A stretch of DNA of 64,000 bases from Thainema sp. (lineage in GTDB: Bacteria > Cyanobacteriota > Cyanobacteriia > Phormidesmidales > Phormidesmidaceae), in assembly GCA_052168235.1 (NCBI GenBank), contig JBQLZK010000030.1, positions 1 to 64,000 of the forward strand. Reading direction: 5' to 3'. A model generated the notes under the pieces. It did not search any database and was not told the DNA's origin. It saw only the letters and a program-made list of their open reading frames with translations. Positions 3,308 through 28,223 of this stretch are shown in pieces. The translations under genes and the position numbers were made by a program. Within the stretch, counting starts at the first letter, position 1, and every line of letters starts with the position of its first letter.

Positions 3308-3310
3308 AGG

Positions 3311-12064: not shown

Positions 12065-12373
12065 GGGATAAGGACTGAGTTTTATCCAGGCAATCTTCTA
12101 TATTCACGTAAATAGAACTTAACTTGCCGAGAGGGAGGTCTGCGTATTTGTGCAAGAAGGCACCCTAACGGGTGATGTCATCGTTTCTTAGTAAGCCTCA
12201 TTCTGACAGCAAGGAGTCAGGATTCATACAAACCCATAGATCGCCGTTAATTTTTAATACATCTACACTTGTAGTAAATTTGAACTATAATAGATTTAAT
12301 GTAAAGTCTATGCATCTCGGATTGCAAACTTTGCAAAGTAACGAGAGAATCGTAATGTAGATTAATAACCTAT

Positions 12374-12877
12374 GTGAATTCTGAGGCATCAGTCATGCTA
12401 GATATCAATATTGTGGCTGATTACATATGCCATTTTCTTTTATCGTTGGATCAGTCTCCAACTCCGCTCCAGCTACAAAAGCTTTTGTATTATGTTCAAG
12501 CTTGGCATTTAGCTTTTTATAAAACAGCTCTGTTTGAGGGTAAATTCCAGGCATGGGCACATGGCCCTGTTAATGTTGAAATATATAATCGATACAAAGA
12601 TCAAAAAAGCATATTTTCTTTAATAGAATCAGAAGACATTTCGGGTGATTTCGACTCTTTGAGTGAAGAAAATAGATATCACATAGAAGCGGTTTTGGAA
12701 AGTTACGGGCATCTAAGCGGTACTCAGCTTGAAGAATTGAGCCATCGAGAAGCGCCCTGGTTAAAAGCACGCGGAAATCTTGGGCCGTATGCAAGATCTA
12801 ACAAGGAAATTTCTGAGAATGATATGATGAATTTCTACGGAAGAATGAAAGAGCCCGATGTAAGCAATGCTTCCTAG
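12374..12877 (+). CDS. Panacea (DUF4065/SocA-like) antitoxin
   Basis: TPLQLQKLLYYVQAW, FQAWAHGPV, LEELSHREAPW motifs. Confidence 0.88.
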   Translation: MNSEASVMLDINIVADYICHFLLSLDQSPTPLQLQKLLYYVQAWHLAFYKTALFEGKFQAWAHGPVNVEIYNRYKDQKSIFSLIESEDISGDFDSLSEENRYHIEAVLESYGHLSGTQLEELSHREAPWLKARGNLGPYARSNKEISENDMMNFYGRMKEPDVSNAS

Positions 12878-12883
12878 CAGTCG

Positions 12884-13675
12884 ATGGCAAAACGAAACAA
12901 CAAGCCCCCTAAACAGTCAGCGTTTAACGCCAAGAACCCTCTACCCAGCAACATCCAGCCCTCTTCTAATAAAATCCCACGCCCCTCAGTGCAATCAGGC
13001 AAAAGATGGGCGTTTTCGTTTAAATACTGGGATCAAATCGAGCATTTTGGGCTAGATAATGATGTTGTCAGAATTAACTGGTTCATCTCTTTCTTGGAGA
13101 AGCTTAAAGAGCTTTCCAGAGAACCTATTGAGCGAGTCATGAATGATCAAATTCAAGCAAAAGCTTATAGGTTTCACATTGTCAATTGGAATCAGAGAAA
13201 TATCCCGATATCCAAAAATGATTTAGACTGGATACCTTCTGAGATTAGAGAATCGGAAGAATTTGACTTTTATCAGTTTCAACTGTCAACCTCAACAGGT
13301 AGAATCATTGGTTATTTTGACGTTGATTATGTCTTTCAGATTGTACTTTTAGACCCCAAACACAATCTTCAACCATCCAGAAATTTTGGCTATAAAGTTG
13401 ACAGAACCAGAGAGTTGAATAGTGATTACCAAATTTTACAAGAAAAACTAGTTGATCTTGATGAAACGGCTAAGTCCATTTGTGATGAAGAGTGTGGCGT
13501 TAGATCTAAGATCGCTGATTTAGCGTCAGAACAAGAAATAGGTAGATACGTATTTTTAGAGGACATTCTTTGCGAAAAGATAGAAGAGTTATGCAACAAG
13601 AAAGGCTATGACTATGTATCTCATCTTTTGCTTGATGCGATTATAACTTTAGAGAGCGAAATGGTTTCTGAGTAG
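12884..13675 (+). CDS. Putative toxin partner of Panacea (possibly RelE-like core plus C-terminal extension)
   Basis: Starts 6 bp after the Panacea gene; FSFKYW...YQFQLS..GRIIGY...FQIVLLDPKHNL. Confidence 0.55.
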   Translation: MAKRNNKPPKQSAFNAKNPLPSNIQPSSNKIPRPSVQSGKRWAFSFKYWDQIEHFGLDNDVVRINWFISFLEKLKELSREPIERVMNDQIQAKAYRFHIVNWNQRNIPISKNDLDWIPSEIRESEEFDFYQFQLSTSTGRIIGYFDVDYVFQIVLLDPKHNLQPSRNFGYKVDRTRELNSDYQILQEKLVDLDETAKSICDEECGVRSKIADLASEQEIGRYVFLEDILCEKIEELCNKKGYDYVSHLLLDAIITLESEMVSE

Positions 13676-14872
13676 CACTGATATCCTTGCGCCCTCCCGT
13701 CCATTTTGGCTTGGTAGTGGCTTTCGTTGGAGATTTGAGAGAGGCTTCACAAATCAGGCTCTTACAAAAAAGCATAAACAGTTCAAGATTTGGCAAGCAC
13801 TTGCTGTTTCCTTTCGCAATCGCAAGATGACATATGCGTCTTGTTGTGCTTGGGAGATGAGAGCTGCAATCGGCTTTATCGTTTTTAAGAGAATCCCAAC
13901 GAGAACATTTTGCTGATCAGCCAGAGATAGAAAGTGCGATCGCACTTTCATAAAGAGAGAAATTCGTTACGCCAACATGAACTCATCTAGCTCATCCGTT
14001 GTGTGAATAATTTCATCCTCTGCCACACCATAAGCTCTAGCTAGATCAATGCTGGCCTGTAGCCGTAGGGTTGTATTCTTGCTTTCATCAAAGGCCGCTT
14101 CCATCAAATCACCCAGCTTGTTGAACTCCGTTGTGATCGTGGCAATCACATTTTGATAGGTGGCATCAATCTGCTTTGTCCAATAAGCAGAGTAACCATC
14201 TAGCCAAGCTTCCAACTCGGTTGCTTTGCCTGATAGATATTGCTTGCCAAAATTCAGCACCATCCGGCTGGCAATTGTGCCAATCACTGCCCCCATAACG
14301 GGCATTGGAATAACTGCTTGACCGATCGCAGCTCCAATTGCCACCATTGCCGACTCAGCACAGGCTAATTGTCCCAGATCAAAAAACTCATCTAGATCAA
14401 TCTCACCTTTGCTGTATCGGTTCGCGAGACTGGCAACCGAGTAGCCAGCGCTGACAATCGCTCCTGCCAACGGTGCGGATAGATTAGCGAAATTGGTCAT
14501 GGCATAGATGGCTGATCCGGAGAAGCCACCCATCGAGCCACCCTTAACCGCTGACATGCCAACATCTTGCCAATCTTCGAGCGAGAATTCTCCCTTAAAG
14601 GGATTTTTCCCTTGCCTAACTTTTTCAATCAGCTTGAAAGTGACCTGCAATCCTGCACCAATTGCTGCACCCTTGAGTGCGACCTGGGCCATTTCATTCA
14701 GGCTAGGCTGATGTTCTAACTCAATGCGGGTTCGGTGTTCAGCATCTCGCTCTTGAATTTCCTTCTCATGGCGATCCAAGGTCTGATCAATTTCACCCTT
14801 CTGGACTTCTGCGTAAGAAGAGACACCAGGCTTCACAACTGTGTCAAACGATTGCCCCGTGGTTTTCTCAAT

Positions 14873-16265
14873 GAGCTATGTTTATTTGTGGTGTACGGTA
14901 AGGAGAAAGAAAGGGCGTATCCTGCTGGATAAGGAAAAAAAGACCAGACGAGGATACACCATGAGTAAGGACAATCTTATTGCATTTCAAGCAGGAGAAT
15001 CATCGGCATCGTTTCGAGATGCCTTGACGGAACTGGTTCGTAACGGTGCTCGCCAGATCATTGCCGAAGCCGTGGAGGCAGAGTTGCAAGAGTTTTTAGC
15101 TCAATACAAAGACCTCAAGGACGAGCAGGGACGCAAGGCTGTAGTTCGCAACGGCTATCTGCCAGAACGCACAATTGTGACCGGGATGGGTGACGTTGAA
15201 ATTCAGGTGCCGAAAGTGCGAGATCGCACCCATAGTGGCATCAAATTCAATTCCTCATTGTTGCCGCCGTACCTGAAACGCGCTCAAAGCGTGGAAGAGG
15301 TGTTACCTTGGCTGTACCTTAAAGGCATATCCAGCGGGGATTTTTCAGAGGCCCTGGCATCATTGCTTGGTGCCCAAGCTAAAGGGCTATCAGCCAGTAC
15401 GATTAGTCGCCTCAAAGCGAAATGGATTGAAGACCATCAACAATGGCAAAAGCGATCTTTAGCGGGTAAGCGGTATGTGTATCTGTGGGCGGACGGCATC
15501 TACTTCAACATCCGCAATGAAAATGACCGTCAGTGTATTTTGGTGATCATCGCGGTGACGGACACTGGAGTTAAGGAATTACTGGGGCTGGAAGCAGGCT
15601 TCCGTGAATCCGAGTTAAGTTGGAAGCCGTTATTGCTGCGCTTGCAAGACCAGGGACTCAAAGTGGCACCGGAACTGGCAGTTGGGGATGGCGCATTAGG
15701 GTTTTGGAAAGCATTGGCACAGGTGTTTCCCACGACTAAACCCCAACGCTGCTGGGTGCATAAAACTGCTAATGTGCTTAACAAACTGCCCAAAACGCAG
15801 CAACCGCAGGCGAAATCTGCCCTACACGAAATCTATCTTGCCGCGACGAAGGACGAGGCAAATAAGGCGTTCGACCGTTTTGTCAAAACCTATGAAGCCA
15901 AGTACCCCAAAGCCGTGGACTGTTTAGTCAAAGACCGGGAGGCACTGTTGGCGTTCTATGATTTTCCGGCTGAGCATTGGGTGCATCTTCGCACCACCAA
16001 TCCAATCGAATCGACCTTTGCCACTGTCCGGTTAAGAACCGATAAGACACGAGGCTGTGTTTCCCAAGACAGCATCTTGTCGTTGGTGTTCAAGCTGGTA
16101 CAGAGTGCTCAGAAGCGATGGTTACGCATTCGTGGATTCAAACGATTAGGGGAGGTGATGAGTGGGGTGAAATTCAAAGATGGCATTCGGGTTGATCCAT
16201 CAGAGAATTCACAACTGAGCCAGGACGCCGCTTAATTCTTCATACACCACACTTGCAAATATCTC
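14873..16265 (+). mobile_element. IS256-family insertion sequence (1393 bp)
   Basis: Imperfect IRs GAGCTATGTTTATTTGTGGTGTACG / GAGATATTTGCAAGTGTGGTGTATG; 8-bp TSD TTCTCAAT at 14865-14872 and 16266-16273. Confidence 0.93.
14961..16235 (+). CDS. IS256-family transposase
   Basis: RNGY..R, PKVRDR, YLWADG, VGDGALGFW, QRCWVHK, RTTNPIES. Confidence 0.95.
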   Translation: MSKDNLIAFQAGESSASFRDALTELVRNGARQIIAEAVEAELQEFLAQYKDLKDEQGRKAVVRNGYLPERTIVTGMGDVEIQVPKVRDRTHSGIKFNSSLLPPYLKRAQSVEEVLPWLYLKGISSGDFSEALASLLGAQAKGLSASTISRLKAKWIEDHQQWQKRSLAGKRYVYLWADGIYFNIRNENDRQCILVIIAVTDTGVKELLGLEAGFRESELSWKPLLLRLQDQGLKVAPELAVGDGALGFWKALAQVFPTTKPQRCWVHKTANVLNKLPKTQQPQAKSALHEIYLAATKDEANKAFDRFVKTYEAKYPKAVDCLVKDREALLAFYDFPAEHWVHLRTTNPIESTFATVRLRTDKTRGCVSQDSILSLVFKLVQSAQKRWLRIRGFKRLGEVMSGVKFKDGIRVDPSENSQLSQDAA

Positions 16266-16821
16266 TTCTCAATCTCTTGAATCTTTGCCTGAATTTTGCG
16301 TACCGTCTTATCGGCTAAGCCATCAACTGATTCTCCGTTCAAAACCTTCTTGATCACCTCGTAATGGTCGCAAGGGATGTGATAGTAAGATCCATCTCGG
16401 CCAAAACGTTGATACTTATCCATGTGTTTCAACACATGATCAAGGTTTTTAGTCACGCCATTAACGAACTTGGACTGAACCTCATTCCCATCTATCAAGT
16501 AATCGGCTGGGGCTGTTCGTCCTACGCCTTCAAAAGTTGCGCTAGGCGGTCGCTGATCGACTAAATCGCGGGCATTCCGAACACCGACTTCAACTTGCTC
16601 AGCAATTTCACCATGTTTGGTTGATACGTTGCCAAGGATATTTTCTGGCTTCCCAATGAAGTCACGAACCTTTTGAATTTGCTGTAATGCATCGGCTAGA
16701 GCTTGATCCTGATTTCCCAAAGATGCCCGAAGATCTGTCCATCGCTGTTGGTTCTGAGCCGCAACAACTCCACCAATGATTTGAGTTGTCTGGTGATGGT
16801 TTTCTTGCACAGCGTTCACTC

Positions 16822-17688
16822 CTAAGCAATCTTTTTCTTGAGGAGTGCAGAAAGGGCTTGAATATTGTTGATCAATGCGCCTAACAGTTCTTTCTGATCT
16901 GGAGAGAATAGGCGGTAATCGTCTGGAGCATGATCATGCAGTTTTGCCAAACATGATCGAACTCCATCAGCATGTTGATGAGTCAGTTGCTTTAGGCTTT
17001 CAATTTCCTTATCAGCCGCTTGTAATTTTCTAATTCCAGTTTGAATCTGAGTCGTATGGTGAGCGGCTTCTTTCGTTGCCTTCGTATTTTGGCTAGTAGC
17101 CCATAATGCCCCACCTGCGATCGCAACACCGCCAATCGCCCAGCCAACTGGCCCTGCTAGAGCTAATAACGCTTGACCGCCTGCCATGCCACTGCCACCT
17201 GCTACCAGTGCTCCACCTCCTAGCCATGCCAAAGCAGCATTTGTTGCTGCAACACCCGATAAAGCTGAAATGGCTGTCCCTGTTGAAGCGGTTCCGAATG
17301 TCGTCGCAATTGCCATTGCTGCCGAAGGAGCAAACGCAGCAACTCCTGCACCTGCCACGACTCCTGCACCCGTGGCAGATTTACGAACCGTGGCTTGCTT
17401 CCGAACCTCAATTTCAATCTGTCGGCTCAAGTCATTGAACTGTTGATACTCAACCTTATATTCAGCCACCGACTTATCAAATTCTTTGGGAGAATTGGCC
17501 AGAGTGTTGATGTAGTTTTCACAGGCTTGAATGACTTCTTCTGCTACGGAGATCCGCAAATCATAAAGCTCTTGGGCATGTTGAGTAACCTTTTGGGCTT
17601 GCTTTTCATAAGCTTTTTGCTCAACTTTGAGTTGTCTGATTGCCCGTTTTTTGGTGTTATGGTTCAGCATCGAAGATAGGACTTGCAT
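16822..17688 (-). CDS. Coiled-coil protein with a long Gly/Ala-rich hydrophobic (glycine-zipper) hairpin
   Basis: FGTASTGTAISALSGVAATNAALAWLGGG...LAGPVGWAIGG; ends 2 bp before the next gene. Confidence 0.75.
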   Translation of the reverse strand: MQVLSSMLNHNTKKRAIRQLKVEQKAYEKQAQKVTQHAQELYDLRISVAEEVIQACENYINTLANSPKEFDKSVAEYKVEYQQFNDLSRQIEIEVRKQATVRKSATGAGVVAGAGVAAFAPSAAMAIATTFGTASTGTAISALSGVAATNAALAWLGGGALVAGGSGMAGGQALLALAGPVGWAIGGVAIAGGALWATSQNTKATKEAAHHTTQIQTGIRKLQAADKEIESLKQLTHQHADGVRSCLAKLHDHAPDDYRLFSPDQKELLGALINNIQALSALLKKKIA

Positions 17689-18104
17689 GGTGATGATTAG
17701 TTGACAGAGTCAAAGCACCCAAAGTTCTTGGTAGTAGAGGGCAAGCCTTAACTGAGAAAAGCTAGTAGCGGCCTTTACCAATATTGCCCAACTCATAAAT
17801 CTACTAACGACAGTAACAATCCCTTATTCAACGTTGGGATGTTTGATCAGGGAACTAAATCGACACCTCATGAATGCGCTGTTGTATGCCAGCCATGTCT
17901 TTATATCTATTTTCTTGCTGAACTAATGCAGCCTGACCTTAATTGAGATCTGCGATCGCACTTCCGATCATCATCCAAATGTCCGCGATCGCATTTTCTC
18001 CTAACCGCGATCGCACTTTGCCCCCACATCGGAGATCGCACCTTTCGCTAATCTCCCCTACGAAACCAAATCCAAAATCCAAAATCGCCAATCCAAAATT
18101 CCCA

Positions 18105-21100
18105 TCACTCCCATTGCTTGCTGCGGGCTTGGTCGATGATTTGTTGGGCTTCTTCGGTGGTGTAGCTGTATCTGTCAGTGAGAAATTGTGCCAAATCTGG
18201 ATTGTCGCAGTCGCGATTAGGTTTGATGTTGATATTTGAAGGTAAACCTGTTCCGCAAAGATAAGGCTGATTTTCTCCAGTTAATTGCTTGGAGTTTAAA
18301 TTTTCACTTTCATGTAGGTTAGTTGCAATTAGCAACGCATAGCTGAAGTCGGCAGAGCTGAGGTCGGTATTGACAAGGATGGCATAGCTGAGGTCGGCAT
18401 TGCTGAGGTTGGCCTCGCGGAGGTCGGCATAGCTGAGGTCGGCAGAGCTGAAGTCGGCAGAGCTGAGGTTGGCCTCGCGGAGGATGGCCTCGCGGAGGTC
18501 GGCATAGCTGAGGTCGGCATCGAAGAGGTAGGCATCGAAGAGGATGGCCCCGCTGAGTTTGGCCCCGCTGAAGTCGGCAAAGCTGAGGTCAGCAGAGCTG
18601 AGGTAGGCCTCGCTGAGGATGGCCTCGCTGAGGTTGGCCTTGCCGAGGATGGCCTTGCTGAGGTGAGCCTCACTGAGGACGGCCTTGCTGAGGTCGGCAT
18701 CGAAGAGGTGAGCCTCAATGAGAACGGCATAGCTGAGGTCGGCATAGCTGAGTTTGGCATAGCTGAGTTTGGCATAGCTGAGGTCGGCATAGCTGAGTTT
18801 GGCATTGCTGAGGTCGGCATTGCTGAGGTCGGCCTTCGGAAGTGGCGCTCTAATCAAAGAACGGCAGTTTCCAAACAATCGCTCTGTAATATATCTATCT
18901 AACCAGGCCAATCCTTGACGAACTTTAACTTGTTTATCGCATCCTGAAACTCGCTCTATAACAGCTTTTCTTTCTGCCTGAGTGCCTTCTTGTTCTATGA
19001 TGCGATCATAGTCATTGCTAAGACTAATTTCGCGCAAACGATACTCAGCTATACAGCCAATAAGTAAGGCAGGAACAATGAGCCAACTCGCTGTTTTCAG
19101 CCGATTCCATCGCCGTTGCCATATACTCTTTTGAATAAAAGTCCTTGCTGGATCAGATAGCGGAAACCGCTCCGCCTGTTTCTTCTGAAACTGCTTCGCT
19201 TCAATCAACGGTAAACCCTGCAACAAATATCCTTTCGACCGTCCCTGTTCCTGCCACGCTACCGCACTGGCTTCGATCCGTCGCTGCTGTCGCAGCAAAT
19301 CTCGATTTTGTTCAATCCACTGTCGCAGCAGTTGCCAATGGCGAATCAACGCCTCATGTGCCACATCTACAATTGCCATCCGTTCAGCATCGTTGCCTTT
19401 ACTGACCACTTCACTCGTTACCAATAGCCGATTCTCTGGTGCGGCTAGCGTCGCGATCACCTGGTTTACCCGTGCCGCTGGATGCTGTGGTTCAGCAATC
19501 AGATTGTCGAGAAATACCCGTCGCCGCGTGTCTTCCGTGCCTTCGCCTAACTGGGTCAACTGCTGAAAGATATGCTGCACTGTGCGTTGTTCAGCAGCAT
19601 CAAAGCTGTTGTAAATTGTCGTGGCGCGTTTGTTCAGCGTGCCATCAATGCCGCCTAGCTTTTGATAGGCCGAGAACACTAGTTGATTATCCTGGCGCTG
19701 CTGCCAGAGTTCCTTCAGCGTGTATTGCAACAGCGGCAGATAACCGGGAGAGCCTTTGATATCGTTGAGCATCTGCGTCACCAGTGCCGCTTCCACCTGG
19801 AGGCCAACCTGTTCAGCGGGTTTGCAGATTGCCGCTTTTAGCTCCTCCGGGTTCATCGGCAACACGCTGATCATGTGCTGCTGTACCTGCTGCGCCAAAC
19901 CGCTGTAGTCTCGCTCCAGACACTTGCCGACAAAGTCCGATCGCATAGCCAGGATTAGACAGAGTTTGTTGTCTGTTTCCGATAATGCCCCCATCAGACA
20001 GGCAAAGAACTGCTCTCGTTCTGTAATATCTTCACAGCGCGTAAACACCTCCTCAAACTGATCGATGACTAGCACCACACGAGAAGAAGTGGCCGCTTCT
20101 ACTAAACGAATCAGCCCTATTGCACCATCGCTGAGATGCTTCAGTACATCAGCTCGCTCTAACTGGGAACCGTCTTTTGGTAAAAAAGCTGTAGCCAGAT
20201 TTTTCATAGGTTGAGCATCAGGCCGCATAATTAAAATTTGCCACTGGTCACTCCCAGGAAGCCGTCCTTCTTGAAGCTGATGTAATAGACCTGCCCGCAA
20301 AACAGAAGATTTTCCATTCCCTGAGGCTCCCACCAGCGCCATAAAATTTTCTGTACGTACATGATCGAGCAGTTGATCCGTCAACTTCTCCCGACCAAAG
20401 AAGTACTTTGGATCTTCGGTATTTAAATCAAAAAATTCCAAGCCTTTGTAAGGACAGATTCCCGCATCAATAGTTACTTTTGCCTCTGCCACCTTGACTT
20501 GCTCAGAGCGAGTTAGATTAATCGCTTGACCGAAGTAGTAGCAAACTGGTGATTGCAGTTCTCCCCTTATTGCTTCTTTGATGTGGTTGACCAACGTTTG
20601 GGTATCTATCCAGCTTTCTGGTGATCGTGTAGGATCTAGACCATCCAATAAAGCTTTGGTCAGTACACTATAGGGACTATTCAAGTCCTGCCAAGATGTT
20701 TCGTATTCGAGAGACGAGGCGATAAAACAACGGTTTCTACGAGAGTTTTGTCCAGGATTAGCAGCATCAATATCGATTAAGAGGCCACCGCTATGGCAGC
20801 AGTCCAACCAAATAATTTGATTTTCGATTGGGCTTCGAGACACCAAATTCCGTAACCAAGCAAGCGAGATTCCAGACCTTGATCGATTTGGATCAGTATC
20901 GCTGGTTGCTAGATAGCCTTTATCCAGTCCATAGCCTCCGTCAGGATCACGTAAACCATGTCCAGAGAAATAAAACAATGCTATATCTGGGCATTGAGGA
21001 CTGTCTGGATCAAAAAATAGCCGTAGTTGCTTCTCCAAATCTACTTGAGTGACAGATAGGGTTTTGCCAACAGTAGGTATCAGTTGATCATGCTGTTGAG

Positions 21101-21245
21101 TAATTGCTTCCGGCACACGAATCACCCCAAAATCGCCATCCTGCTCTAATCGATCTGCGATCGCATTTGCATCTGCTGCTGGAGCATTCAAACTGTGTAA
21201 GTGGGTATAAGTGTTGATGCCAACAACGAGTGCCTTACGATTCAT
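18105..21245 (-). CDS. Caspase-like protease - STAND (nSTAND1-type) NTPase - TM - pentapeptide repeat protein
   Basis: ALVVGIN, FYFSGHG and WLDCCHSG (His/Cys dyad); CPYKGL, FFGRE, GASGNGKS, VLVIDQFEE, LPLLQY, AHEAL; hydrophobic WLIVPALLIGCIA; A(D/N)LSx repeats. Confidence 0.88.
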   Translation of the reverse strand: MNRKALVVGINTYTHLHSLNAPAADANAIADRLEQDGDFGVIRVPEAITQQHDQLIPTVGKTLSVTQVDLEKQLRLFFDPDSPQCPDIALFYFSGHGLRDPDGGYGLDKGYLATSDTDPNRSRSGISLAWLRNLVSRSPIENQIIWLDCCHSGGLLIDIDAANPGQNSRRNRCFIASSLEYETSWQDLNSPYSVLTKALLDGLDPTRSPESWIDTQTLVNHIKEAIRGELQSPVCYYFGQAINLTRSEQVKVAEAKVTIDAGICPYKGLEFFDLNTEDPKYFFGREKLTDQLLDHVRTENFMALVGASGNGKSSVLRAGLLHQLQEGRLPGSDQWQILIMRPDAQPMKNLATAFLPKDGSQLERADVLKHLSDGAIGLIRLVEAATSSRVVLVIDQFEEVFTRCEDITEREQFFACLMGALSETDNKLCLILAMRSDFVGKCLERDYSGLAQQVQQHMISVLPMNPEELKAAICKPAEQVGLQVEAALVTQMLNDIKGSPGYLPLLQYTLKELWQQRQDNQLVFSAYQKLGGIDGTLNKRATTIYNSFDAAEQRTVQHIFQQLTQLGEGTEDTRRRVFLDNLIAEPQHPAARVNQVIATLAAPENRLLVTSEVVSKGNDAERMAIVDVAHEALIRHWQLLRQWIEQNRDLLRQQRRIEASAVAWQEQGRSKGYLLQGLPLIEAKQFQKKQAERFPLSDPARTFIQKSIWQRRWNRLKTASWLIVPALLIGCIAEYRLREISLSNDYDRIIEQEGTQAERKAVIERVSGCDKQVKVRQGLAWLDRYITERLFGNCRSLIRAPLPKADLSNADLSNAKLSYADLSYAKLSYAKLSYADLSYAVLIEAHLFDADLSKAVLSEAHLSKAILGKANLSEAILSEAYLSSADLSFADFSGAKLSGAILFDAYLFDADLSYADLREAILREANLSSADFSSADLSYADLREANLSNADLSYAILVNTDLSSADFSYALLIATNLHESENLNSKQLTGENQPYLCGTGLPSNINIKPNRDCDNPDLAQFLTDRYSYTTEEAQQIIDQARSKQWE
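18335..18835 (-). repeat. 15-bp tandem DNA repeats encoding the pentapeptide array
   Basis: About 30 GC-rich units of the form GCC(G/A)AC CTC AGC NNN. Confidence 0.85.
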
Positions 21246-21351
21246 GAGGATGAGTCAAACAGGTGAGGGTTCAGTAGCTACTATGGCCAGAGTCACCGCA
21301 TCTTGGCGACCCTGAGTAACTTTTATTAACGCTATCGCCAGAGCCGAACCA

Positions 21352-21753
21352 ATGAAGCACCTCACCCGCATCCAGCTTGACCCCGACACCGTTATTTATG
21401 TAGAAGCAGAGGAAGAAGTCGCTATTCCGCAACCACCCATCACATCAACATCGGGAGAAGCGACCCGCGAAACGCTGGGACTTGACGAAAAAGGTGTCGC
21501 AGAAGTGGCAGCGGAACAGGCCATGCAGCGGTTCTTAGCATTAGAAAACACCTTACAGACCTACACTAAACGCACCCTCAAGGCATTCAAAGAAATGAGT
21601 GACGCCAGCGTTGATAAGGTAACGCTAGAGTTTGGCATCAACATGGGCGGCGAGGCCGGAGTCCCCTATGTCACAAAGGGCACCGCTGAATGCAGCCTCA
21701 AAGTCACCGTTGAGAGTTCATTTTCCAAGTCATCCACTGAGTCTAAAGAGTAA
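21352..21753 (+). CDS. Trypco1/CU044_2847-like protein
   Basis: IQLDPDTVIYVE...VDKVTLEFGINMGGEAGVPYVTKGTAECSLKVTV. Confidence 0.7.
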   Translation: MKHLTRIQLDPDTVIYVEAEEEVAIPQPPITSTSGEATRETLGLDEKGVAEVAAEQAMQRFLALENTLQTYTKRTLKAFKEMSDASVDKVTLEFGINMGGEAGVPYVTKGTAECSLKVTVESSFSKSSTESKE

Positions 21754-21932
21754 TCGAGGTTTGGGATCTTCAAGCTGTAATCGTAACTAGAACGTTGTGT
21801 AGCTCGATTTAGAATATGCAATCGTACTTTTAACCAGCTCTTTCACCTCTGAGATCGCAACTAAAGCATCTTGCATTTGAGATATCTGGTGAAAAAAGTG
21901 AATAGTTCGTTTTTGAGTTTTCTTCAAATTTT

Positions 21933-22163
21933 TCAAAATTCTCCAGAGTATCCATCCAAGGTTGTCTGTCGTATTTTTTGCAACTGAAATATAATCTGTC
22001 GCATCTGTCGAATCTCGGCAGAGTGCCAGCCCGTTTTCAACGCATTCTGGCTGCTAACTGCTTTACCGTCACTCGTTGTCGGGCCTGTGGAGGCTTTCCA
22101 CGGTTTCCATGTCTGAATCAGTTCTCGTTGCCGCTGTTTTGCTTCTGGTGTCCATCGGGGCAT
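21933..22163 (-). CDS. Small basic protein with an STGP motif (HGGxSTG-like)
   Basis: WTPEAKQRQRELIQTWKPWKASTGPTTSDGKAVSSQNALKTG. Confidence 0.6.
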   Translation of the reverse strand: MPRWTPEAKQRQRELIQTWKPWKASTGPTTSDGKAVSSQNALKTGWHSAEIRQMRQIIFQLQKIRQTTLDGYSGEF

Positions 22164-22713
22164 AAGGTGAAGCCTCCATTGCTTGAGTATTGAAAGATTG
22201 GGAAGTTTCTTGGGCATTGCCAAAATCTGGCTCAGTCATCGGTGGCTGTGACTGTTCGACCTTAAGCTGATTCAATTGCTTGTCCACATAATTTTTGATG
22301 AGCTGGGTGGGTTTTTTAGGATTTTTGATTTCTGACAGTGATACCAACGTTTTACGGCATTGTTCCTGTGCTCGTAATCCAAGGGAAATGTAGCGATCGC
22401 ATTGTTCTGGGTTTGTCATCATGTATCCTGCCAACGTAAACATACGATGGAACAATGCCTGTAAAACCTCTGCTTGGCTCAAGAGAATACGCTCAGCTTC
22501 CTGTAAGTCCCCTTTTTGAAGCTGGGTCGCATTATCTGTCAAGGTTGGTATCAAAGCAGTTGCCTTCTCAATGGAATACCCTCGCTTAGAGTAGAGAATC
22601 CATGCAATCGTTTGAGCGGCTGCCAATTCTGGGTGTTCTATCGATAGCTTGTACAAATCAATAAGGTGAGATTTTTCAGTCTTGGAAGTTTTTGGACTTT
22701 TTTTAGGTGCCAT
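22069..22713 (-). CDS. Hypothetical protein of the element backbone
   Basis: ATG 22713 directly after the primase stop; ERILLSQAEVLQALF...LRAQEQCRKTL..IKNP. Confidence 0.65.
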   Translation of the reverse strand: MAPKKSPKTSKTEKSHLIDLYKLSIEHPELAAAQTIAWILYSKRGYSIEKATALIPTLTDNATQLQKGDLQEAERILLSQAEVLQALFHRMFTLAGYMMTNPEQCDRYISLGLRAQEQCRKTLVSLSEIKNPKKPTQLIKNYVDKQLNQLKVEQSQPPMTEPDFGNAQETSQSFNTQAMEASPYAPMDTRSKTAATRTDSDMETVESLHRPDNE

Positions 22714-22717
22714 ATTT

Positions 22718-25354
22718 TTAATCTGATTGAGATTGACGATTACTGATTGGTCGAATTTTGCAAGCGTCTGGAATCCATGTTTTTGATCCGTCCTCAAACT
22801 CTACTTGCCACATTGAAAGGCGCTTCCGGGGATCTGGATCGTCATTGGGCAGAGTGGTAAAAGTCGCAAGCTTCCAGCAGTCATCATGTAACACTTCACC
22901 GCGATCGCCAACTTGGATATTGGCGTGATAGACCGATGAGACAGTTGGAGACGGTTGAGAGACAGTTTGAGAGACAATTGAATCCCTTGCTAGATAAGGC
23001 TTAGGGACAGTTGGAGACACTTGAAGCCATAACTCTTCTTGTATGGGCGTTTTGTCTGATTGATCTTGATCCTCTTCAATGTTTATTGAAGTTTTAGAGT
23101 CTAACTGTCTACAACTGTCCCTATCGATTGCTGTGTCTGGGTTTGAACTGTCTCGAAAACTGTCCCTAGACTGTCCCTCAACTATCCCTAAATGATCGGC
23201 AACGTCAAACTCTGACATTTTGGGAATGGTGTAGTAATAACAGCCGTTGAGTTTGCCTGATGAGCGTTCACAGCCGAGAGATTTGATCGCAGCGCTGAAC
23301 TTGACGTTGCTTTTTTTCTTCTCAATGCCGTTTTCCACGCACCATGCAATATACTGCTTGTACAAATCACCTGCTTTGATGCTGACAGCTCCATTCGGAA
23401 ATCCTTCGCATAAGAACCGAAATTCAGGATTATCGGCTTCAAAGCGTTCCATATTTGACTGTGCGATCGCTTGAATTTTGCCCGCATTCATAATGCGCTG
23501 ACGCATCACGCCATGACTCAGGCGATAACACCACATGAAAATACCAGGTAGCTCAGCTTCTAGCTTCTTGGATAAATCGTTGTCCACTTTTTCAGGACGA
23601 TGACGAAATGGAATTACCGTTAACCGTCGATCCAAGCCCTCAGAGCCATCTGGCACAGCGACATGCTCGTTATACGCTCGAATGATCGTGATTCCCAATC
23701 GAACTGAGCACGTGTCCTTGTATAGCTTTTTGACAACAACGGGTTCATTGCTAACGACACGGTTGAAGTCACCCACATTGCTCAGATAACCCATCGCATC
23801 GTAATCAATGGCAATGAGCTTATCGACCATCATGGCTAATCCCTGAGCAGATTTGAAGGAATCAACTTTTATGCCAGCAATATTCTCCTCACCAGCCAAT
23901 TTGGAGAGTACGTCCAGGGTTGTCCCTTTACCTGTTCCCTTTTTGCCATGTAAATCAAACGACTTCTCAATTTCAGCCTTTTGATTTTTAGGACGGGGCA
24001 ACAGTGCATAACGAAACATCGCCTGAACGAGATTGACTCGTTCGATATCTTCCTCCATCGCTTCACGGATGAACGTGAGCCAAGTGGGACAGTCTGCCTC
24101 TCGATCAAAGGCATAGGGTCGAACTTGAACTAGCCGATCTAGTGGATTATGCTTGGCAACAAATACCTCAGTTTTGAGATTGAGTGTCCCATTCGTAAAG
24201 CCAATTTTCTCTGATGAACCCCAGCATTTTTCTTTAACCAACAGCCGAGATTTCAATTCGCTAGAAATCGATTTGATATGCCCAATACTACGGTTGTCCC
24301 ATTGCTGAGCATCCATAAATCGCATTAGTTCAGCATTAAATTCATCTTCAGCAACAAGCGACCAATGTGTTCCTTGCCATTGATACCAACCTAAACCGGG
24401 ACGATAGGCCCATACTTCTTTGAGTACCGACCAAGCCATCAATGCCTTGTATCGGATGCTGGGTTCTTTCAGATTGAGGACAACCGAAACTGCTTCATCA
24501 TCTCCATCACCTTCAATTTCAGCCTTGAAAGAGGTTGGCTTGGCAGCCTCAGCAAGGGCTTTCAGTGCTTCTACACCATGCCTGACGATGAAATCATCCA
24601 GCCCATTTTTGTCACCGTCAGTTTCATTTGGCAGCAAGACTAGATAGGGCGATGCCCCTAGCTTGGTCAGTTCGTAAGCACGTTTGGCCAATGCCGTCTG
24701 AACACCAATCTTTTCAATGATGTCGGAATCAAAGCATTGATTCACTCGTCTATTTCGCCAGTTGATAACATCCAATTCAGGCAGAACGCGAGATTTTTCT
24801 AATTTCTCACCTGAGCTGCGATCGCAACTATCAACCCAGCTATCTACGCCACCAAAAGCAAGGACAGCTAAACCCCTAGCGCAACCACAATCTCCTTTCT
24901 TTTCGCCTTCAGTTTCCCAAAGGTCGATCTTGGTTGATTTGATTGTAGTTTCCCAATTGGGATAAAGCTTGGAAAAGTAAGGACGACAGCCTTGACCTTT
25001 TGGGCTGAGATATTTAGGCTTGTCAGTTGGATCATCCCAATCTGGTTTGATCCGATAAAAGGGCTGATCGTCTGATCTCAGATATGGTTTACCTTCCGGA
25101 TCACAGTATTGAAAAACTAGGCCACCTAGAGAAACACCTAGTAATGACTCGGCAGTTTCCGGATCAGCGTAGAAATGACCTGTTTGCTTGATTTGGTCAT
25201 CTGTCAAACCGCTTGCTCGTAAATCTTTGAGATGAGCACTCCTTAATTTTTTAGGCGTTCTTTCAGTAGAATGGTTACAAGAAATATCAACGTCAATGTC
25301 AGGGCGATCGCAGTGATTCATATTGCGATCGTTCGCAGTATTTTCATCCATCAA
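22718..25354 (-). CDS. Primase-helicase (DUF3854/Toprim-like plus D5/P4-type SF3 helicase)
   Basis: KYLSP, TEGEKK, FDSD and GLDD Toprim-like motifs; IGFTNGTLNL; GKKGTGKGT Walker A; DRRLTVIPF. Confidence 0.88.
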   Translation of the reverse strand: MMDENTANDRNMNHCDRPDIDVDISCNHSTERTPKKLRSAHLKDLRASGLTDDQIKQTGHFYADPETAESLLGVSLGGLVFQYCDPEGKPYLRSDDQPFYRIKPDWDDPTDKPKYLSPKGQGCRPYFSKLYPNWETTIKSTKIDLWETEGEKKGDCGCARGLAVLAFGGVDSWVDSCDRSSGEKLEKSRVLPELDVINWRNRRVNQCFDSDIIEKIGVQTALAKRAYELTKLGASPYLVLLPNETDGDKNGLDDFIVRHGVEALKALAEAAKPTSFKAEIEGDGDDEAVSVVLNLKEPSIRYKALMAWSVLKEVWAYRPGLGWYQWQGTHWSLVAEDEFNAELMRFMDAQQWDNRSIGHIKSISSELKSRLLVKEKCWGSSEKIGFTNGTLNLKTEVFVAKHNPLDRLVQVRPYAFDREADCPTWLTFIREAMEEDIERVNLVQAMFRYALLPRPKNQKAEIEKSFDLHGKKGTGKGTTLDVLSKLAGEENIAGIKVDSFKSAQGLAMMVDKLIAIDYDAMGYLSNVGDFNRVVSNEPVVVKKLYKDTCSVRLGITIIRAYNEHVAVPDGSEGLDRRLTVIPFRHRPEKVDNDLSKKLEAELPGIFMWCYRLSHGVMRQRIMNAGKIQAIAQSNMERFEADNPEFRFLCEGFPNGAVSIKAGDLYKQYIAWCVENGIEKKKSNVKFSAAIKSLGCERSSGKLNGCYYYTIPKMSEFDVADHLGIVEGQSRDSFRDSSNPDTAIDRDSCRQLDSKTSINIEEDQDQSDKTPIQEELWLQVSPTVPKPYLARDSIVSQTVSQPSPTVSSVYHANIQVGDRGEVLHDDCWKLATFTTLPNDDPDPRKRLSMWQVEFEDGSKTWIPDACKIRPISNRQSQSD
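22938..23188. repeat. Mirror-symmetric array of 12 iteron-like 9-mers (putative origin)
   Basis: G(A/G)GACAGTT-like at 22938, 22948, 22959, 22971, 23004, 23014; inverted copies at 23103, 23113, 23146, 23158, 23169, 23180. Confidence 0.75.
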
Positions 25355-25620
25355 CCAGCCCTCCGACCTCGTTTCTTCGGTTGGTTAGAGGGCAGAGATG
25401 CTAGATAATGATCAATTGCGCGTTGATGAGCATCTGGATTAGCTCGATTCGCAACCCAATCCAGAATGAGCGATAGATTGTATAAAATGCATCGAGAATT
25501 GATCCGTTGCCAGTGAATACCTTCATGCCATTTGCCTGAAAGACGGTATTTTTTGAATGTTTCAGGGGATAACCCTGTTAGTTCTGCTAGGCGATGTTTA
25601 TTACAAAATTGGGTGTTCAT
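25351..25620 (-). CDS. Excisionase-like small HTH protein
   Basis: KHRLAELTGLSPETFKKYR..WHEGIHW...YNL; lies between integrase and primase and overlaps the primase start. Confidence 0.7.
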   Translation of the reverse strand: MNTQFCNKHRLAELTGLSPETFKKYRLSGKWHEGIHWQRINSRCILYNLSLILDWVANRANPDAHQRAIDHYLASLPSNQPKKRGRRAG

Positions 25621-25769
25621 GGGGTAGTTTGAACGATTACCCCATCATCGAAATCCATGCCACCCTAACTTACAAGAATGTCCTAATGCAAAGAAATATT
25701 AAGGGCTAGCTCAGGGACATGCTGTAACTACCAAACTGGTTTTCCCTAGATATGTTTAAGAAATAGATG

Positions 25770-26693
25770 CTAAATGTTCCAGTACGATGAATCTTTGATG
25801 TATTTGCCTTTCTCCCAAATATGTGAAGGAGTCCTATATTTACCCCTCAAATCAGGTGAACACTCTCGCTGAATCTGCAACTTGGAAAGTTCATCTATTC
25901 CTTTCCTATAATTTTCTATATACCGCTTTATTGATGCGTTTTTCTCGCTTAGGAAGTCTGCAACAATTAATACGCGATTTAGCCAAGTCGCAAAAGGTCG
26001 ATTTCCGTCAATGAGGCTATAAAGCCTATTTATATCAGCATCCGAAGCTTTTGAACGATGATCTCTTCTTTTGAGTATTGCCATTTCTTTAATGTGAGAA
26101 GCCGTGTATATATAGCGCCTTTGCAAACAAGCACAAAATTCATCCTCAATATCTTCTCTCATGATTTCCACAAAAAGAGAGCGTATAGAATCGAAGGGAA
26201 ATCCCCAGTTGTTTTCGAGGTTTTTTATAATATTTAACTCACCTACTTTGATGAGATTCCAAAGACTCTTAAATACTTTTGTTACTGCTAGCTTATAGTC
26301 ATACGAAAACTGATCGATGTTCCCCTTTTCTAGCTCGCTGTTTAACCAAGGCGAATCACTGTCTGCCCAGAAGCAGAGTGCTAGTTCTACCGCACTATCT
26401 CTGTAAGCAATCCAGTGCCAAACCTGATCAAAGCTTGTGAAATTGATGAAGAGATCTGTATTCGGTAAGTTAGAGATACGGTTGGCTATCCATTCCTCAT
26501 CCGTCTCTGGAGAGAACGTTCTTCCGACAGGAATACAATCAGGTGAGAAGAACCACGATACACGTTTGCCGTCCTTCGCCAATTGATGGCAAGCTACAGA
26601 ACAATGTCTTCCCTCAAGAACTCGATCCGGCTCGCCAACAAGCGCTAATTCGGCAAACTGTAATTTGCCTGCAAAAAACTGATTGAGGCTCAT
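25770..26693 (-). CDS. Hypothetical protein
   Basis: 307-aa AT-rich ORF downstream of the integrase; no motif recognised. Confidence 0.6.
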   Translation of the reverse strand: MSLNQFFAGKLQFAELALVGEPDRVLEGRHCSVACHQLAKDGKRVSWFFSPDCIPVGRTFSPETDEEWIANRISNLPNTDLFINFTSFDQVWHWIAYRDSAVELALCFWADSDSPWLNSELEKGNIDQFSYDYKLAVTKVFKSLWNLIKVGELNIIKNLENNWGFPFDSIRSLFVEIMREDIEDEFCACLQRRYIYTASHIKEMAILKRRDHRSKASDADINRLYSLIDGNRPFATWLNRVLIVADFLSEKNASIKRYIENYRKGIDELSKLQIQRECSPDLRGKYRTPSHIWEKGKYIKDSSYWNI

Positions 26694-26751
26694 AACTTAG
26701 GAAAGTAAGCATGTACTCTTCTAAGTTACCTAAACTTCCCTAAAAAGATGC

Positions 26752-27975
26752 CTAAATCTCCGTAGGTCTTAATTGCTCAAGTCTAAGCTTATCTAGATAT
26801 TTTTCCTCGATTACCTTGCTTGAGTTGCCTACCCATCGAGCGATAGTAGTCGAGGAGTTACCAGGTCGTCCGTCAACAGGCATGGCTTGTAAGGTAATGA
26901 ACGTATCACGACAGTTGTAGGGAGTCATTTTCACTCCGTCCTTCGTATCTAGCCCTAAACCCGTGAGAATCGTTTTCCACGCGCGATCGCTAAAGTTAGA
27001 CTCGCCGATCGCACCTCCTTTCGGAGAAGGAAATACCAAATCCTCTGGATTGGGAGACTCAGGTTTAATCGATTGTAGTAGTGCTTGCAATTTGGGAGTA
27101 CACGCAAACCAGCGTCTTACACCTGTTTTCGTGGTTTTCCGTCTAACTAACCTACCTGATACCTCAACGATACTTTCGTGAAAGTGGACTCTACTGCAAT
27201 CAGGAGTAACGCTTCCCCACCGTAAACCGATCGCTTCACAGGGTCTACAGCCAGTCCAAAAGAGGAATTTGACAAATGGTGAATAGAACCGATAATTCAT
27301 CCCTGGTCTGACATCATTTTCAAACGCTTCGATGATCCGATCTCGCTCTTCAACCGAGAAGGACATTGGAGGAGCAGGTTTAGTGGGTTCCAGTTCCTTA
27401 TACATTCCCTCGAACGGGTTCGCCTCAATCATCCCGTGCTTAACTGCCCAGTTGCAGCAAGCAGATAACTGCATCAAAGCCCGTCGAGCTTGAGACTGAG
27501 TTGTAACTTGTAATAGTTCCATACGGAATTTCAAAGCGTCTTGCAACCCATCTGTTGAACACTTCTCTAGATAGCTTGTTACTGGCTGATAAGTTCCATT
27601 AATCGTTTTTGGAGAAACATGCGGGCTTTTGTAATCAAAATACTCTGCCCATAACGCCTTAAGTTTTGGGATAGGTTTCGGTGCGATGTCTGGGTCAGCT
27701 ACCGACAAAGATGTTTCTGGTTTGTATTTAGCAAGGGTTGGGTCGAAGTAGTCTCCACCGTGAGCTAGTTGTAAACGCATATCGTCTTCAATCTGCCTAG
27801 CTCGTGCTTCTGCGGCTCTCCGATTTGCTTTGGTATCCGGTAAGCCTAATCCGAGAGAGTAGCGTTGCCCATTGAATCGAAAGCGCAACCGCAACCGCCC
27901 CCGAAAGGTTTCTATGCTTACAGTGCCCTTTGGATTCTTGCCTGATGGGGTTTTATCGCTATCACTGTTAAACAT
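26752..27975 (-). CDS. Tyrosine recombinase/integrase with N-terminal arm-binding domain
   Basis: GRLRLRFRFNGQRYSLGLGL arm domain; TGCRPCEA, TKT, YNCRDTF, WVGNS, terminal Tyr; likely start ATG 27975. Confidence 0.92.
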   Translation of the reverse strand: MFNSDSDKTPSGKNPKGTVSIETFRGRLRLRFRFNGQRYSLGLGLPDTKANRRAAEARARQIEDDMRLQLAHGGDYFDPTLAKYKPETSLSVADPDIAPKPIPKLKALWAEYFDYKSPHVSPKTINGTYQPVTSYLEKCSTDGLQDALKFRMELLQVTTQSQARRALMQLSACCNWAVKHGMIEANPFEGMYKELEPTKPAPPMSFSVEERDRIIEAFENDVRPGMNYRFYSPFVKFLFWTGCRPCEAIGLRWGSVTPDCSRVHFHESIVEVSGRLVRRKTTKTGVRRWFACTPKLQALLQSIKPESPNPEDLVFPSPKGGAIGESNFSDRAWKTILTGLGLDTKDGVKMTPYNCRDTFITLQAMPVDGRPGNSSTTIARWVGNSSKVIEEKYLDKLRLEQLRPTEI

Positions 27976-28000
27976 GGTTTTCACCTGGAACGCTTGTTCT

Positions 28001-28031
28001 TGATACCCAGATGATACCCAAGTGATACCCA
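28001..28031 (+). promoter_or_regulatory. Putative integrase arm-type sites (3x TGATACCCA, 11-bp period)
   Basis: TGATACCCA at 28001, 28012 and 28023, between the integrase start and att. Confidence 0.7.
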
Positions 28032-28110
28032 AAACGGTCTAATCTACCCCAATCTTTACCCCATTTTTAGAACAATCGTATTGTCAACATGTAATATCCC
28101 TTAATCAAGG

Positions 28111-28143
28111 AAACCCCAGAAGCCTCGTGGTTTCTGGGGTTTT
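28111..28143 (-). terminator. Hairpin immediately downstream of the tRNA
   Basis: AAACCCCAGAAGCC-tcgt-GGTTTCTGGGGTTT. Confidence 0.6.
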
Positions 28144-28151
28144 GACTTGTA

Positions 28152-28223
28152 AGCCGATGGCGGGATTTGAACCCGCGACCGCTCGATTACGAATCGAGTG
28201 CTCTACCACTGAGCCACATCGGC
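28152..28223 (-). tRNA. trnT: tRNA-Thr(CGT)
   Basis: GCCGATG...CATCGGC acceptor stem, CTCGA-TTCGTAA-TCGAG anticodon arm, GGTTCAAATCC T-arm; CCA not encoded. Confidence 0.96.

Follow-up and report, generated by a model that had tools for sequence, protein, structure and literature searches.

A putative caspase receptor gene lies head to head with a Trypco1 gene

What does the caspase-like receptor encoded on contig JBQLZK010000030.1 of the cyanobacterium Thainema sp. act on, and on which side of the membrane does its pentapeptide domain sit? The receptor gene occupies positions 18105..21245 (reverse strand) of the 64,000-nucleotide stretch analyzed here, hereafter the window. By ORF calling and profile matches, it encodes a 1046-aa caspase-nSTAND1-TM-pentapeptide protein. 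A domain search recovered a Peptidase_C14 domain (aa 3–227; 20565..21239, reverse strand; E 6e-17) and an nSTAND1 NTPase (aa 265–671; 19233..20453, reverse strand; E 3e-124), in agreement with the NLR-like caspase-STAND architecture proposed in the initial annotation. The His/Cys dyad described there as intact was located at H96 and C150, and both residues are near-universal: in an alignment of 120 homologs, 111 retain H96 (with eight gaps and one Tyr in the others) and 115 retain C150 (five gaps). Residues D25, S94, and D148 each align with the equivalent residue in the Trypanosoma metacaspase MCA2. Walker A (GASGNGKS, aa 306–313) and Walker B (ending in DQFEE, aa 395–399) are likewise intact, as had been claimed, with the Walker A lysine K312 kept in 120/120 homologs. 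Pentapeptide repeats flanked on either side by helical caps follow at aa 800–979 (18309..18848, reverse strand); the repeats reported earlier are present, but they number 36, all in register, rather than about 30. Caspase-nSTAND1-pentapeptide proteins are common, making up the majority of the best 120 homolog matches. The receptor also matches NF047832, the EACC1-system caspase profile (E 3e-27; 95 bits, under the cut-off of 140).

On the opposite strand, a gene at 21352..21753 (forward strand) encodes a 133-aa Trypco1, or Pepco, protein (PF19493, E 5e-19; NF041216, E 6e-23). The two genes diverge from a gap of exactly 106 bp (21246..21351), confirming the head-to-head arrangement first described. 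The predicted layout of the protein is an N-terminal β-hairpin (residues 3–19), a variable loop, a long amphipathic helix (46–82; hydrophobic moment up to 0.51 at 64–84) ahead of β strands (89–123), and a C-terminal tail of nine residues. With the low-confidence monomer model (pLDDT 60), Foldseek returned nothing at E < 0.001 and VIA-align nothing clear (best Z 4.7). The gap is equally long and similar in sequence in a genome of the same genus; no 6-mer was common to more than nine of the 30 caspase-Trypco1 gaps compared, and a promoter and terminator scan of the gap gave no promoter and no excess over shuffled sequences. Decay of the Trypco1 gene was considered and rejected, because its Cys122-to-Ser change is shared by three close relatives and the ending ESSF occurs in 4/120 sequences.

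Trypco1 is a recurrent partner of the caspase

Co-occurrence of the two genes had been proposed as a check on their association, and linkage was found in 24 of the 43 closest caspase relatives, where Trypco1 adjoins the caspase gene. These pairs are divergent in 23 cases (one truncated, one with genes 702 bp apart) and co-oriented in one. At one further locus Trypco1 lies 3.6 kb away, and 18 loci (one at a contig edge) have none in the fetched region. The initial annotation regarded this Trypco1 as lacking its trypsin partner; given its position beside 24/43 close caspases, the lack of a trypsin is not anomalous. Its partner is the caspase, and Pepcos with cysteine proteases are already in print in the available text of a recent preprint (Evans et al., bioRxiv 10.1101/2025.11.14.688446). 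Trypco1 remains constant while the caspase sensors swap between NB-ARC, TPR, VMAP-C, FGE, WD40, and EAD9. Two Streptomyces loci (L231, L232) carry Trypco1 directly 5′ of a trypsin-nSTAND1 gene, i.e., the same effector and ATPase with another protease.

Surveyed from the Trypco1 side, 81 genes in 80 loci included just 11 beside a caspase and one beside a trypsin; most flank housekeeping genes such as amidase, clpP, cobD, and uvrA, with 83 of 114 unlabelled neighbors scanned. The Trypco1 of the window falls in an 11-row set that is entirely caspase-linked (quick tree, SH-aLRT 98). Caspase and Trypco1 identities correlate across 31 linked pairs (Mantel rho 0.55); as the homologs are kin, both the tree clustering and the Mantel test overstate independence, and co-inheritance of the cassette alone suffices to explain the correlation. 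The same genome contains a second divergent Trypco1/caspase pair (C61), a Pepco-like gene directly upstream of a caspase-FGE gene (C14), and, on another contig, an EACC1-like/caspase pair (C2, labelled by eye). In a genome contig scan, a divergent Trypco1 was found at one (L001, 50% identity) of 27 mostly distant loci among the matches listed. Both families were present in 69 of 250 genomes, with Trypco1 only in 30, caspase only in eight, and neither in 143, counts in which kin are not independent; 69 of the 77 caspase-bearing genomes hold a Trypco1 somewhere.

A loop Lys-Gly pair is the likely cut site

We predict cleavage at Lys47-Gly48 (21490..21495, forward strand), a conserved pair within the hypervariable loop. 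Lys-Gly occurs in 89 of 102 Trypco1 loops vs 14.2 expected from shuffles (maximum 26 in 1000 shuffles), and K47 and G48 are kept in 64/71 and 63/71 Trypco1 proteins, respectively, with variable columns next to them. The aligned position in actinobacterial Trypco1 proteins holds an Arg/Gly motif. The loop Lys-Gly is missing from two of 32 caspase-linked Trypco1 proteins and from two copies encoded in the same genome (C61 and C33). Judged from these alignments, a caspase of the Arg/Lys type would probably cut at Lys47-Gly48. A basic P1 specificity has been proposed for cyanobacterial orthocaspases in the available text of PMC8283722. It is not certain here, because KrAvs12 carries the same Asp-Cys-Cys motif as the receptor caspase, with Asp49 as its modelled cut site (Evans et al., available text).

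Two other sites were considered. Removal of the C-terminal tail was rejected as a clade-wide trigger: the Trypco1 clade has no conserved C-terminal Ile, its members ending in ECSF or ESSF plus a variable tail that is merely two residues long after the last Phe in L206, L210, L215, L218, and L227. Lys109-Gly110, although invariant, is placed within the core strands, and its SsPepco counterpart is uncut, so it was not preferred. The receptor probably switches Trypco1 on by a cut that differs from that of the tested Pepco.

The locus would extend a published kind of protease-effector system

The available text of Evans et al. (bioRxiv 10.1101/2025.11.14.688446) describes SsPepco, paired with SsAvs4, as a β-barrel toxin activated by cleavage after Ile97, with its C-terminal tail dropped; Pepcos (Trypco1/2) accompany serine or cysteine proteases, pair with transmembrane STAND ATPases, and are common in cyanobacteria. 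As in SsPepco-SsAvs4, the window places a small Pepco/Trypco gene beside one for a STAND sensor with a fused protease, and several features of a Pepco module were found: a PF19493/NF041216 gene, an adjacent sensor-fused protease with intact catalytic residues, recurring pairing, and a predicted amphipathic helix preceding the strands that would form the barrel. Whereas SsPepco is Trypco2-like (by eye; helix first) and co-oriented with a trypsin-type protease that has a cytoplasmic portal sensor, the gene studied here is divergent and encodes a Trypco1 with an extra N-terminal hairpin, no conserved C-terminal Ile, and a predicted cut at loop Lys47. Its receptor differs from SsAvs4 in having a C14 caspase, an nSTAND1 domain, and, by inferred topology, an extracytoplasmic pentapeptide domain.

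Related caspases occur in EACC1-caspase systems, which according to the available text of Kaur et al. (2020; PMC7159879) and, for KrEACC1-KrAvs12, of Evans et al. combine a C14 caspase with variable sensors, including TM types, and free the EACC1 effector by loss of an N-terminal inhibitory part; the same may apply to Trypco1, although the locus has no EACC1 gene and the gene 5′ of the caspase is Trypco1. The same text ties Trypco to trypsin and caspase to α/β-hydrolase. The Trypco1-trypsin pairs of VMAP ternary systems share the PF19493 domain, but here Trypco1 accompanies a caspase, and the element ORFs scanned included neither a MoxR nor a vWA gene. Cyanobacterial orthocaspases with C14 fused to AAA-type, WD40, pentapeptide, and TM modules have been catalogued, with no linked substrate named in the available text (PMC8283722).

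Like Avs and other antiviral STAND proteins, the receptor is a STAND NTPase with an N-terminal effector and invariant Walker A/B motifs. Avs proteins sense phage structural proteins through cytoplasmic TPR domains; the sensor here is instead a pentapeptide β-helix behind a hydrophobic helix, and no PADLOC Avs model matched the receptor. Bacterial gasdermins are pores gated by caspase-like proteases that cause abortive death. The effector here is unrelated to them in sequence, and sequence profiles gave no gasdermin match among the neighbors (PDC-M09A, PDC-M09B, and Trypco1). Because systems of this general kind have been published before, surprise is limited; the Trypco1 hairpin, the loop Lys-Gly, and the absent C-terminal Ile are new. 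A literature search outside most subscription journals found no experimental Trypco1-caspase pair or N-terminal Pepco cut, although Fig. 5A or the supplement of Evans et al. may show the architecture; the main text of Kaur 2021 mentions neither "Pepco" nor "Trypco".

On balance, and with moderate confidence, we consider the two genes a Pepco-kind protease-effector defense cassette on an integrated mobile element, in which the caspase receptor would trigger a lethal Trypco1 pore. We infer cleavage, pore formation, and anti-phage activity as follows. The caspase and nSTAND1 domains would sit in the cytoplasm and the disulfide-capped β-helix in the periplasm or thylakoid lumen, where receptor clustering could be induced by a ligand or by a sign of damage, phage attack being the most plausible source. 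By analogy with STAND and caspase biology, nSTAND1 would then oligomerize and bring caspase domains together as dimers, which would cut Trypco1, most likely after Lys47, and remove its hairpin. The amphipathic helix and β strands left behind, laid out as in activated SsPepco, could form a membrane β-barrel pore, and the resulting cell death might protect neighboring cells. The observations of the initial annotation are confirmed and its interpretation is partly supported: Trypco1 as a substrate with pore logic is likely, in line with what Evans et al. showed, in the available text, for another Pepco. If correct, the 2025 Pepco mechanism would reach the Trypco1/caspase branch. Cyanobacterial orthocaspases, long linked to programmed death, would gain a candidate substrate (Trypco1) with a candidate cut (Lys47-Gly48), and pentapeptide repeats a candidate role in extracytoplasmic sensing.

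A wider generalization is doubtful, though conceivable: Trypco1-type Pepcos may be pro-pores licensed oppositely to Trypco2-type ones, by a hairpin cut at a basic-Gly site under a death-receptor-like trigger, with orphan core-genome copies acting in trans in one common pathway. The Trypco1 hairpin would then be removed by a protease specific for Arg/Lys, namely trypsin in actinobacteria and an orthocaspase in cyanobacteria. A pentapeptide signal relayed by a single helix to a STAND of the NLR type would be a bacterial counterpart of cell-surface death receptors, and orphan Trypco1 and caspase-nSTAND1-WD40 would be the sought substrate and executioner of cyanobacterial caspase-dependent death.

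The cassette is carried by an integrated mobile element

The module lies in an integrated element of approximately 28 kb (130..28201), bounded by 51-bp direct repeats (130–180 and 28151–28201) that correspond to the 3′ part of a tRNA-Thr gene. Its mobility genes include an integrase, an excisionase-like gene, and a P4-type primase, and its cargo comprises type I RM, YhcG/PDC-S02, HicA-like, PIN, and Panacea genes. This setting bears on whether the same module might serve a purpose other than phage defense, e.g., sensing of envelope, lumen, or redox state that leads to stress-related or developmental death or to limited proteolysis by way of a caspase/Trypco1 pathway common to cyanobacteria, with its core-genome members encoded apart. 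Consistent with such a role, Trypco1 orphans with a stable place among housekeeping genes are widespread, as are orphan caspase-nSTAND1-WD40 genes (44–49% identity), both families occurring in 69/250 genomes; extracytoplasmic sensors such as CHASE2 are typical of signaling, and cyanobacterial pentapeptide proteins are almost without known function in the available text of PMC8145042. We nevertheless consider it unlikely, given that a mobile element carries the cassette alongside RM, TA, and PADLOC-candidate genes, that the same-genus copy adjoins other mobile-type genes, and that the close caspase clade is patchy (28/173 family genomes) and exchanges its sensors in the manner of conflict systems.

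Our preferred reading also takes Trypco1 to be the effector. Trypco1 could instead be an adaptor, scaffold, or inhibitor of a caspase that kills by cleavage of host proteins or by self-cleavage, as suggested by the 18/43 close caspases without an adjacent Trypco1 and by Dore et al. (bioRxiv), who in the available text term trypco1 an adapter domain. The assignment of pore formation rests on the equation of Trypco1 with Trypco2 by Evans et al. (available text), because our own hhalign comparison of Trypco1 with a five-sequence Trypco2 alignment was weak (probabilities of 5% and 15%, strands in register), which also favors an adaptor. SsPepco, however, is both cut and itself the toxin (Evans et al., available text), a protease-type motif is conserved within the otherwise variable Trypco1 loop, and 69/77 caspase genomes hold a Trypco1, making a non-effector role rather improbable.

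The pentapeptide domain probably lies outside the cytoplasm

The single TM helix of the initial annotation corresponds to a hydrophobic segment at aa 716–733 (19047..19100, reverse strand), which follows a basic stretch and falls within one unbroken predicted helix spanning residues 698–751. In the receptor alone the helix is weak: its best 19-residue Kyte-Doolittle mean is 1.53 (aa 715–734), lower than the 1.58 of a soluble stretch of the same protein (aa 376–394), and its hydrophobic core is 15–16 residues long with a central Pro. The assignment leans on homologs because the helix is borderline here, and they back it: the 19-residue mean is at least 1.6 at the helix in 81 of 110 homologs, and net charge is +5 before the helix vs 0 after it. 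The uncharged run has a median length of 16 in these homologs, reaching at least 19 in just 12/110 and only 12 residues in some.

Cysteine counts behind the helix are even in 102, zero in two, and odd in none of 104 homologs, vs odd in 60 and even in 44 ahead of it; these homologs are kin, so parity overstates independence. Conserved pairs occur in the caps flanking the repeats (C769/C794 and C997/C1013), the second being present in 96/100 and missing altogether in 4/100. In the available text of PMC8145042, lumenal pentapeptide proteins have caps stabilized by disulfides, and both pairs here may form such bonds. In one relative (L226), a CHASE2 domain replaces the repeats behind an equivalent hydrophobic segment. 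Hydropathy and homologs together indicate that aa 716–733 is a probable single membrane span with the N-terminus inside. Because of the paired cysteines behind the helix and CHASE2 at the equal position, the pentapeptide domain would be an extracytoplasmic sensor, its topology read from homologs; these two features and the positive-inside charge bias support the earlier claim that the repeats lie across the membrane from the protease.

Were there no span, the pentapeptides could act in the cytoplasm, in the manner of soluble Avs-like sensors, as a DNA mimic or decoy that binds DNA-binding proteins of phages. The low hydropathy, the short Pro-containing core, and fold matches of the domain, among them MfpA and Qnr, which mimic DNA in the cytoplasm, are compatible with this; strict cysteine pairing only behind the helix, the charge bias, and the CHASE2 swap make it quite improbable.

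The downstream gene pair is a separate system

The glycine-zipper pair that the initial annotation offered as a substrate or adaptor is the candidate defense system PDC-M09, comprising PDC-M09A (16822..17688) and PDC-M09B (13967..16819), both on the reverse strand and outside the module. Gasdermin-fashion activation of this pair by the caspase is highly improbable: it is co-oriented with the caspase gene, 417 bp downstream, and has hydrophobic glycine-rich segments, but it occurs in 0/43 caspase loci and 0/80 Trypco1 loci, 13 other M09A loci have no caspase, STAND, pentapeptide, or Trypco1 gene within 1.5 kb, and M09B is interrupted here. PDC-M09 is a separate, broken neighbor. The insertion, which the initial annotation had missed, is an IS256/Mutator-family element (14873..16265, forward strand) with 23-nt imperfect inverted repeats and an 8-bp target duplication, and it splits the second gene of the pair; M09B is present at five of the 13 other M09A loci.

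The receptor and its divergent Trypco1 neighbor

The receptor ORF (18105–21245, minus strand) encodes 1046 amino acids, with Pfam assigning Peptidase_C14 (residues 3–227), nSTAND1 (265–671), and pentapeptide repeats, 36 of which lie in register (800–979). Catalytic residues H96 and C150 are both present, as are Walker A (306–313) and Walker B (ending at 399). These positions are kept in 111–120 of 120 aligned homologs; the remaining cases are gaps, bar one tyrosine at H96. The AlphaFold2 model (mean pLDDT 90) connects the domains by a single helix (698–751), and its fold matches include pentapeptide solenoids, Cdc6/ORC-type AAA+ domains, MALT1, and a plant NLR. Using residues 1–800 as query, we obtained 4370 matches among 7998 scored candidates; most of the best 120 also contain pentapeptides, and this architecture is common in cyanobacteria. 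The Trypco1 gene (21352–21753, plus strand; 133 amino acids; Pfam and NCBIfam) is divergent from the receptor gene across a 106 bp gap. The initial annotation described both the caspase-STAND-pentapeptide protein and its head-to-head neighbor correctly.

Their co-occurrence, also raised in that annotation, is a conserved linkage. Among 43 other caspase loci (E at most 1e-64), Trypco1 adjoins the caspase in 24. It is divergent in 23 of these, among them a truncated copy and one at a distance of 702 bp, and co-oriented in one; the distance is 82 bp in locus L225. Another locus has Trypco1 3.6 kb away, and the other 18, of which one ends at a contig edge, showed none. Linked caspases swap pentapeptides for NB-ARC, TPR, VMAP-C, FGE, WD40, or EAD9 (16 proteins scanned). 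A search of 250 genomes gave 139 non-self Trypco1 matches; of the 81 ranked highest, ten are divergent from a caspase, one is co-oriented with a caspase, and one is convergent with a trypsin; most are orphans next to amidase, clpP, cobD, or uvrA (83 of 114 unlabeled neighbors scanned against Pfam). A quick tree of 102 rows, excluding fragments under 90 amino acids, placed the window Trypco1 within a supported 11-row set in which every row is caspase-linked. Caspase and Trypco1 identities correlate across 31 linked pairs (rho 0.55), as cassette co-inheritance alone could produce. In Streptomyces, two Trypco1 genes lie directly upstream of trypsin-nSTAND1, which argues that the caspase has taken trypsin's place beside Trypco1. 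At one locus (L064:9345–14901), two caspase-nSTAND1 genes follow a single Trypco1 in tandem, which suggests that two sensors share one effector.

Receptor topology

The hydrophobic stretch is marginal in the window protein (best 19-residue Kyte-Doolittle mean 1.53). In the 110 of 120 homologs covering it, the median is 1.77 (at least 1.6 in 81), the stretch free of charged residues is short (median 16), and net charge drops from +5 ahead of it to 0 behind it. Among 104 sufficiently long homologs, cysteine number behind the helix is even in 102, zero in two, and odd in none; ahead of the helix, 60 have an odd number and 44 an even one. Control segments were mixed, with the caspase domain tending to even (82 of 114). 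C769 and C794 are co-present in 90 of 93 homologs, and C997 and C1013 are both present in 96 of 100 and both absent in four. CHASE2 is an extracellular sensor domain; in a close caspase-nSTAND1 relative without an adjoining Trypco1 (L226:4412–7738), a TM-flanked CHASE2 replaces the pentapeptides at the equivalent position, behind a hydrophobic segment like the receptor's. Disulfide-stabilized helical caps are known in lumenal pentapeptide proteins (PMC8145042). Although the homologs compared are kin rather than independent trials, the best reading, for which these patterns argue fairly strongly, is that the sensor part is extracytoplasmic.

Relation to Pepco systems and a candidate cleavage site

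Kaur et al. (2020; PMC7159879) named Trypco1/2 as trypsin neighbors, and Evans et al. (2025; bioRxiv 10.1101/2025.11.14.688446) equated them with Pepco, which is prevalent in cyanobacteria. This kind of system is already known, since the latter describe Pepco with serine or cysteine protease partners and transmembrane STANDs, and SsPepco forming 9–10-mer beta-barrels that are lethal after a cut at Ile97. We interpret the module as a Pepco-type protease-effector cassette in Trypco1/caspase form, with a predicted extracytoplasmic sensor and a putative anti-phage role.

SsPepco starts with an amphipathic helix, as do Pfam Trypco2 members (compared by eye), whereas in the window Trypco1 an extra N-terminal hairpin (3–19) and a disordered loop are predicted to precede the helix; hhalign matched Trypco1 to Trypco2 weakly (probability 5% and 15%). 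In contrast to the SsPepco cut, no conserved C-terminal isoleucine was found in the Trypco1 clade, and the C-terminal tail is two residues in five caspase-linked copies; tail removal is therefore ruled out as a general trigger.

Although neither the length nor the sequence of the loop is constant, it contains Lys-Gly in 89 of 102 proteins (14.2 in shuffles); K47 aligns in 64 of 71 and G48 in 63 of 71, and the motif lines up with an Arg/Gly motif of actinobacterial Trypco1s. Lys-Gly is missing in two of 32 caspase-linked copies and in two further copies of the window's own genome (contigs C61 and C33). Receptor residues D25, S94, and D148 match the same residues in Trypanosoma MCA2 (weak match, E 0.27), residues with a role in an acidic S1 pocket. 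Orthocaspases are reported to cleave after basic residues (PMC6426788; PMC8283722). The caspase may cut Trypco1 after K47, which would leave the helix and strands, as in active SsPepco, and parallel the described loss of an N-terminal inhibitor by EACC1. Pores might then form. Counting against this reading are the weak match of Trypco1 to Trypco2, the copies that lack Lys-Gly, and KrAvs12, which has the same DCC motif as the receptor caspase and was modeled to cut at Asp (Evans et al., 2025).

Genomic setting

The downstream glycine-zipper pair proposed as a partner in the initial annotation (13967–17688) corresponds to PDC-M09A/B, which PADLOC carries as a candidate system (E 9e-117 and 2e-114); the one paper that names PDC-M09 lists it as a candidate and no more. 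We rejected it as a module part: it occurred in none of 80 Trypco1 and 43 caspase loci, and an IS256-family element (14873–16265; 8-bp target duplication) interrupts M09B. None of thirteen other M09A loci, five of them with M09B, has a caspase, STAND, pentapeptide, or Trypco1 gene closer than 1.5 kb. The module is independent of PDC-M09.

By its homologs, the host is a cyanobacterium. An integrated element of about 28 kb (130–28201) carries the module, bounded by a 51-bp att repeat (130–180 and 28151–28201) that is the 3′ part of tRNA-Thr. It encodes an integrase, an excisionase-like gene, and a P4-type primase (DUF3854/D5), with type I RM, YhcG/PDC-S02 nuclease, HicA-like, PIN, and Panacea TA genes as cargo. 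A PIN-type TA pair is inserted between hsdM and hsdS, and a SNase-Excalibur nuclease is also present. Four sizeable ORFs (10083–11159, 12884–13675, 22069–22797, and 25770–26693) matched no significant Pfam, NCBIfam, or PADLOC family; the best was a weak MAG6450 match for the 263-amino-acid ORF beside the Panacea antitoxin.

Orphan Trypco1 genes stand at housekeeping positions in many cyanobacteria (own-genome C53:46282–46860; loci L060–L137), and many likewise keep an orphan caspase-nSTAND1-WD40 (C18:14130–19946). Across 250 genomes, 69 contain both families, 30 Trypco1 only, eight caspase only, and 143 neither, a co-occurrence inflated by kinship and genome size and mostly involving orphan core genes. 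On this pattern, the window cassette may be a mobile, linked form of a core pathway whose genes are otherwise unlinked, and the orphans might work together in trans as protease and effector.

The window's own genome carries several protease-effector modules. In a second divergent Trypco1/caspase pair (C61:33975–41003), Trypco1 is the C61 copy without loop Lys-Gly; two ATPase genes come next that look like AAA_35 and have TM-like tails (all labeled by eye). A Pepco-like small gene lies upstream of a caspase-FGE (C14:15611–17844), and an EACC1-like gene with loop motif SKG upstream of a caspase-GUN4-like gene (C2:40798–42971), both again labeled by eye. Contig C33 (38735–47669) has, co-oriented, ATPase-WD40, Trypco1, two peptidoglycan-binding/lysozyme-like genes, and a caspase-like gene (by eye).
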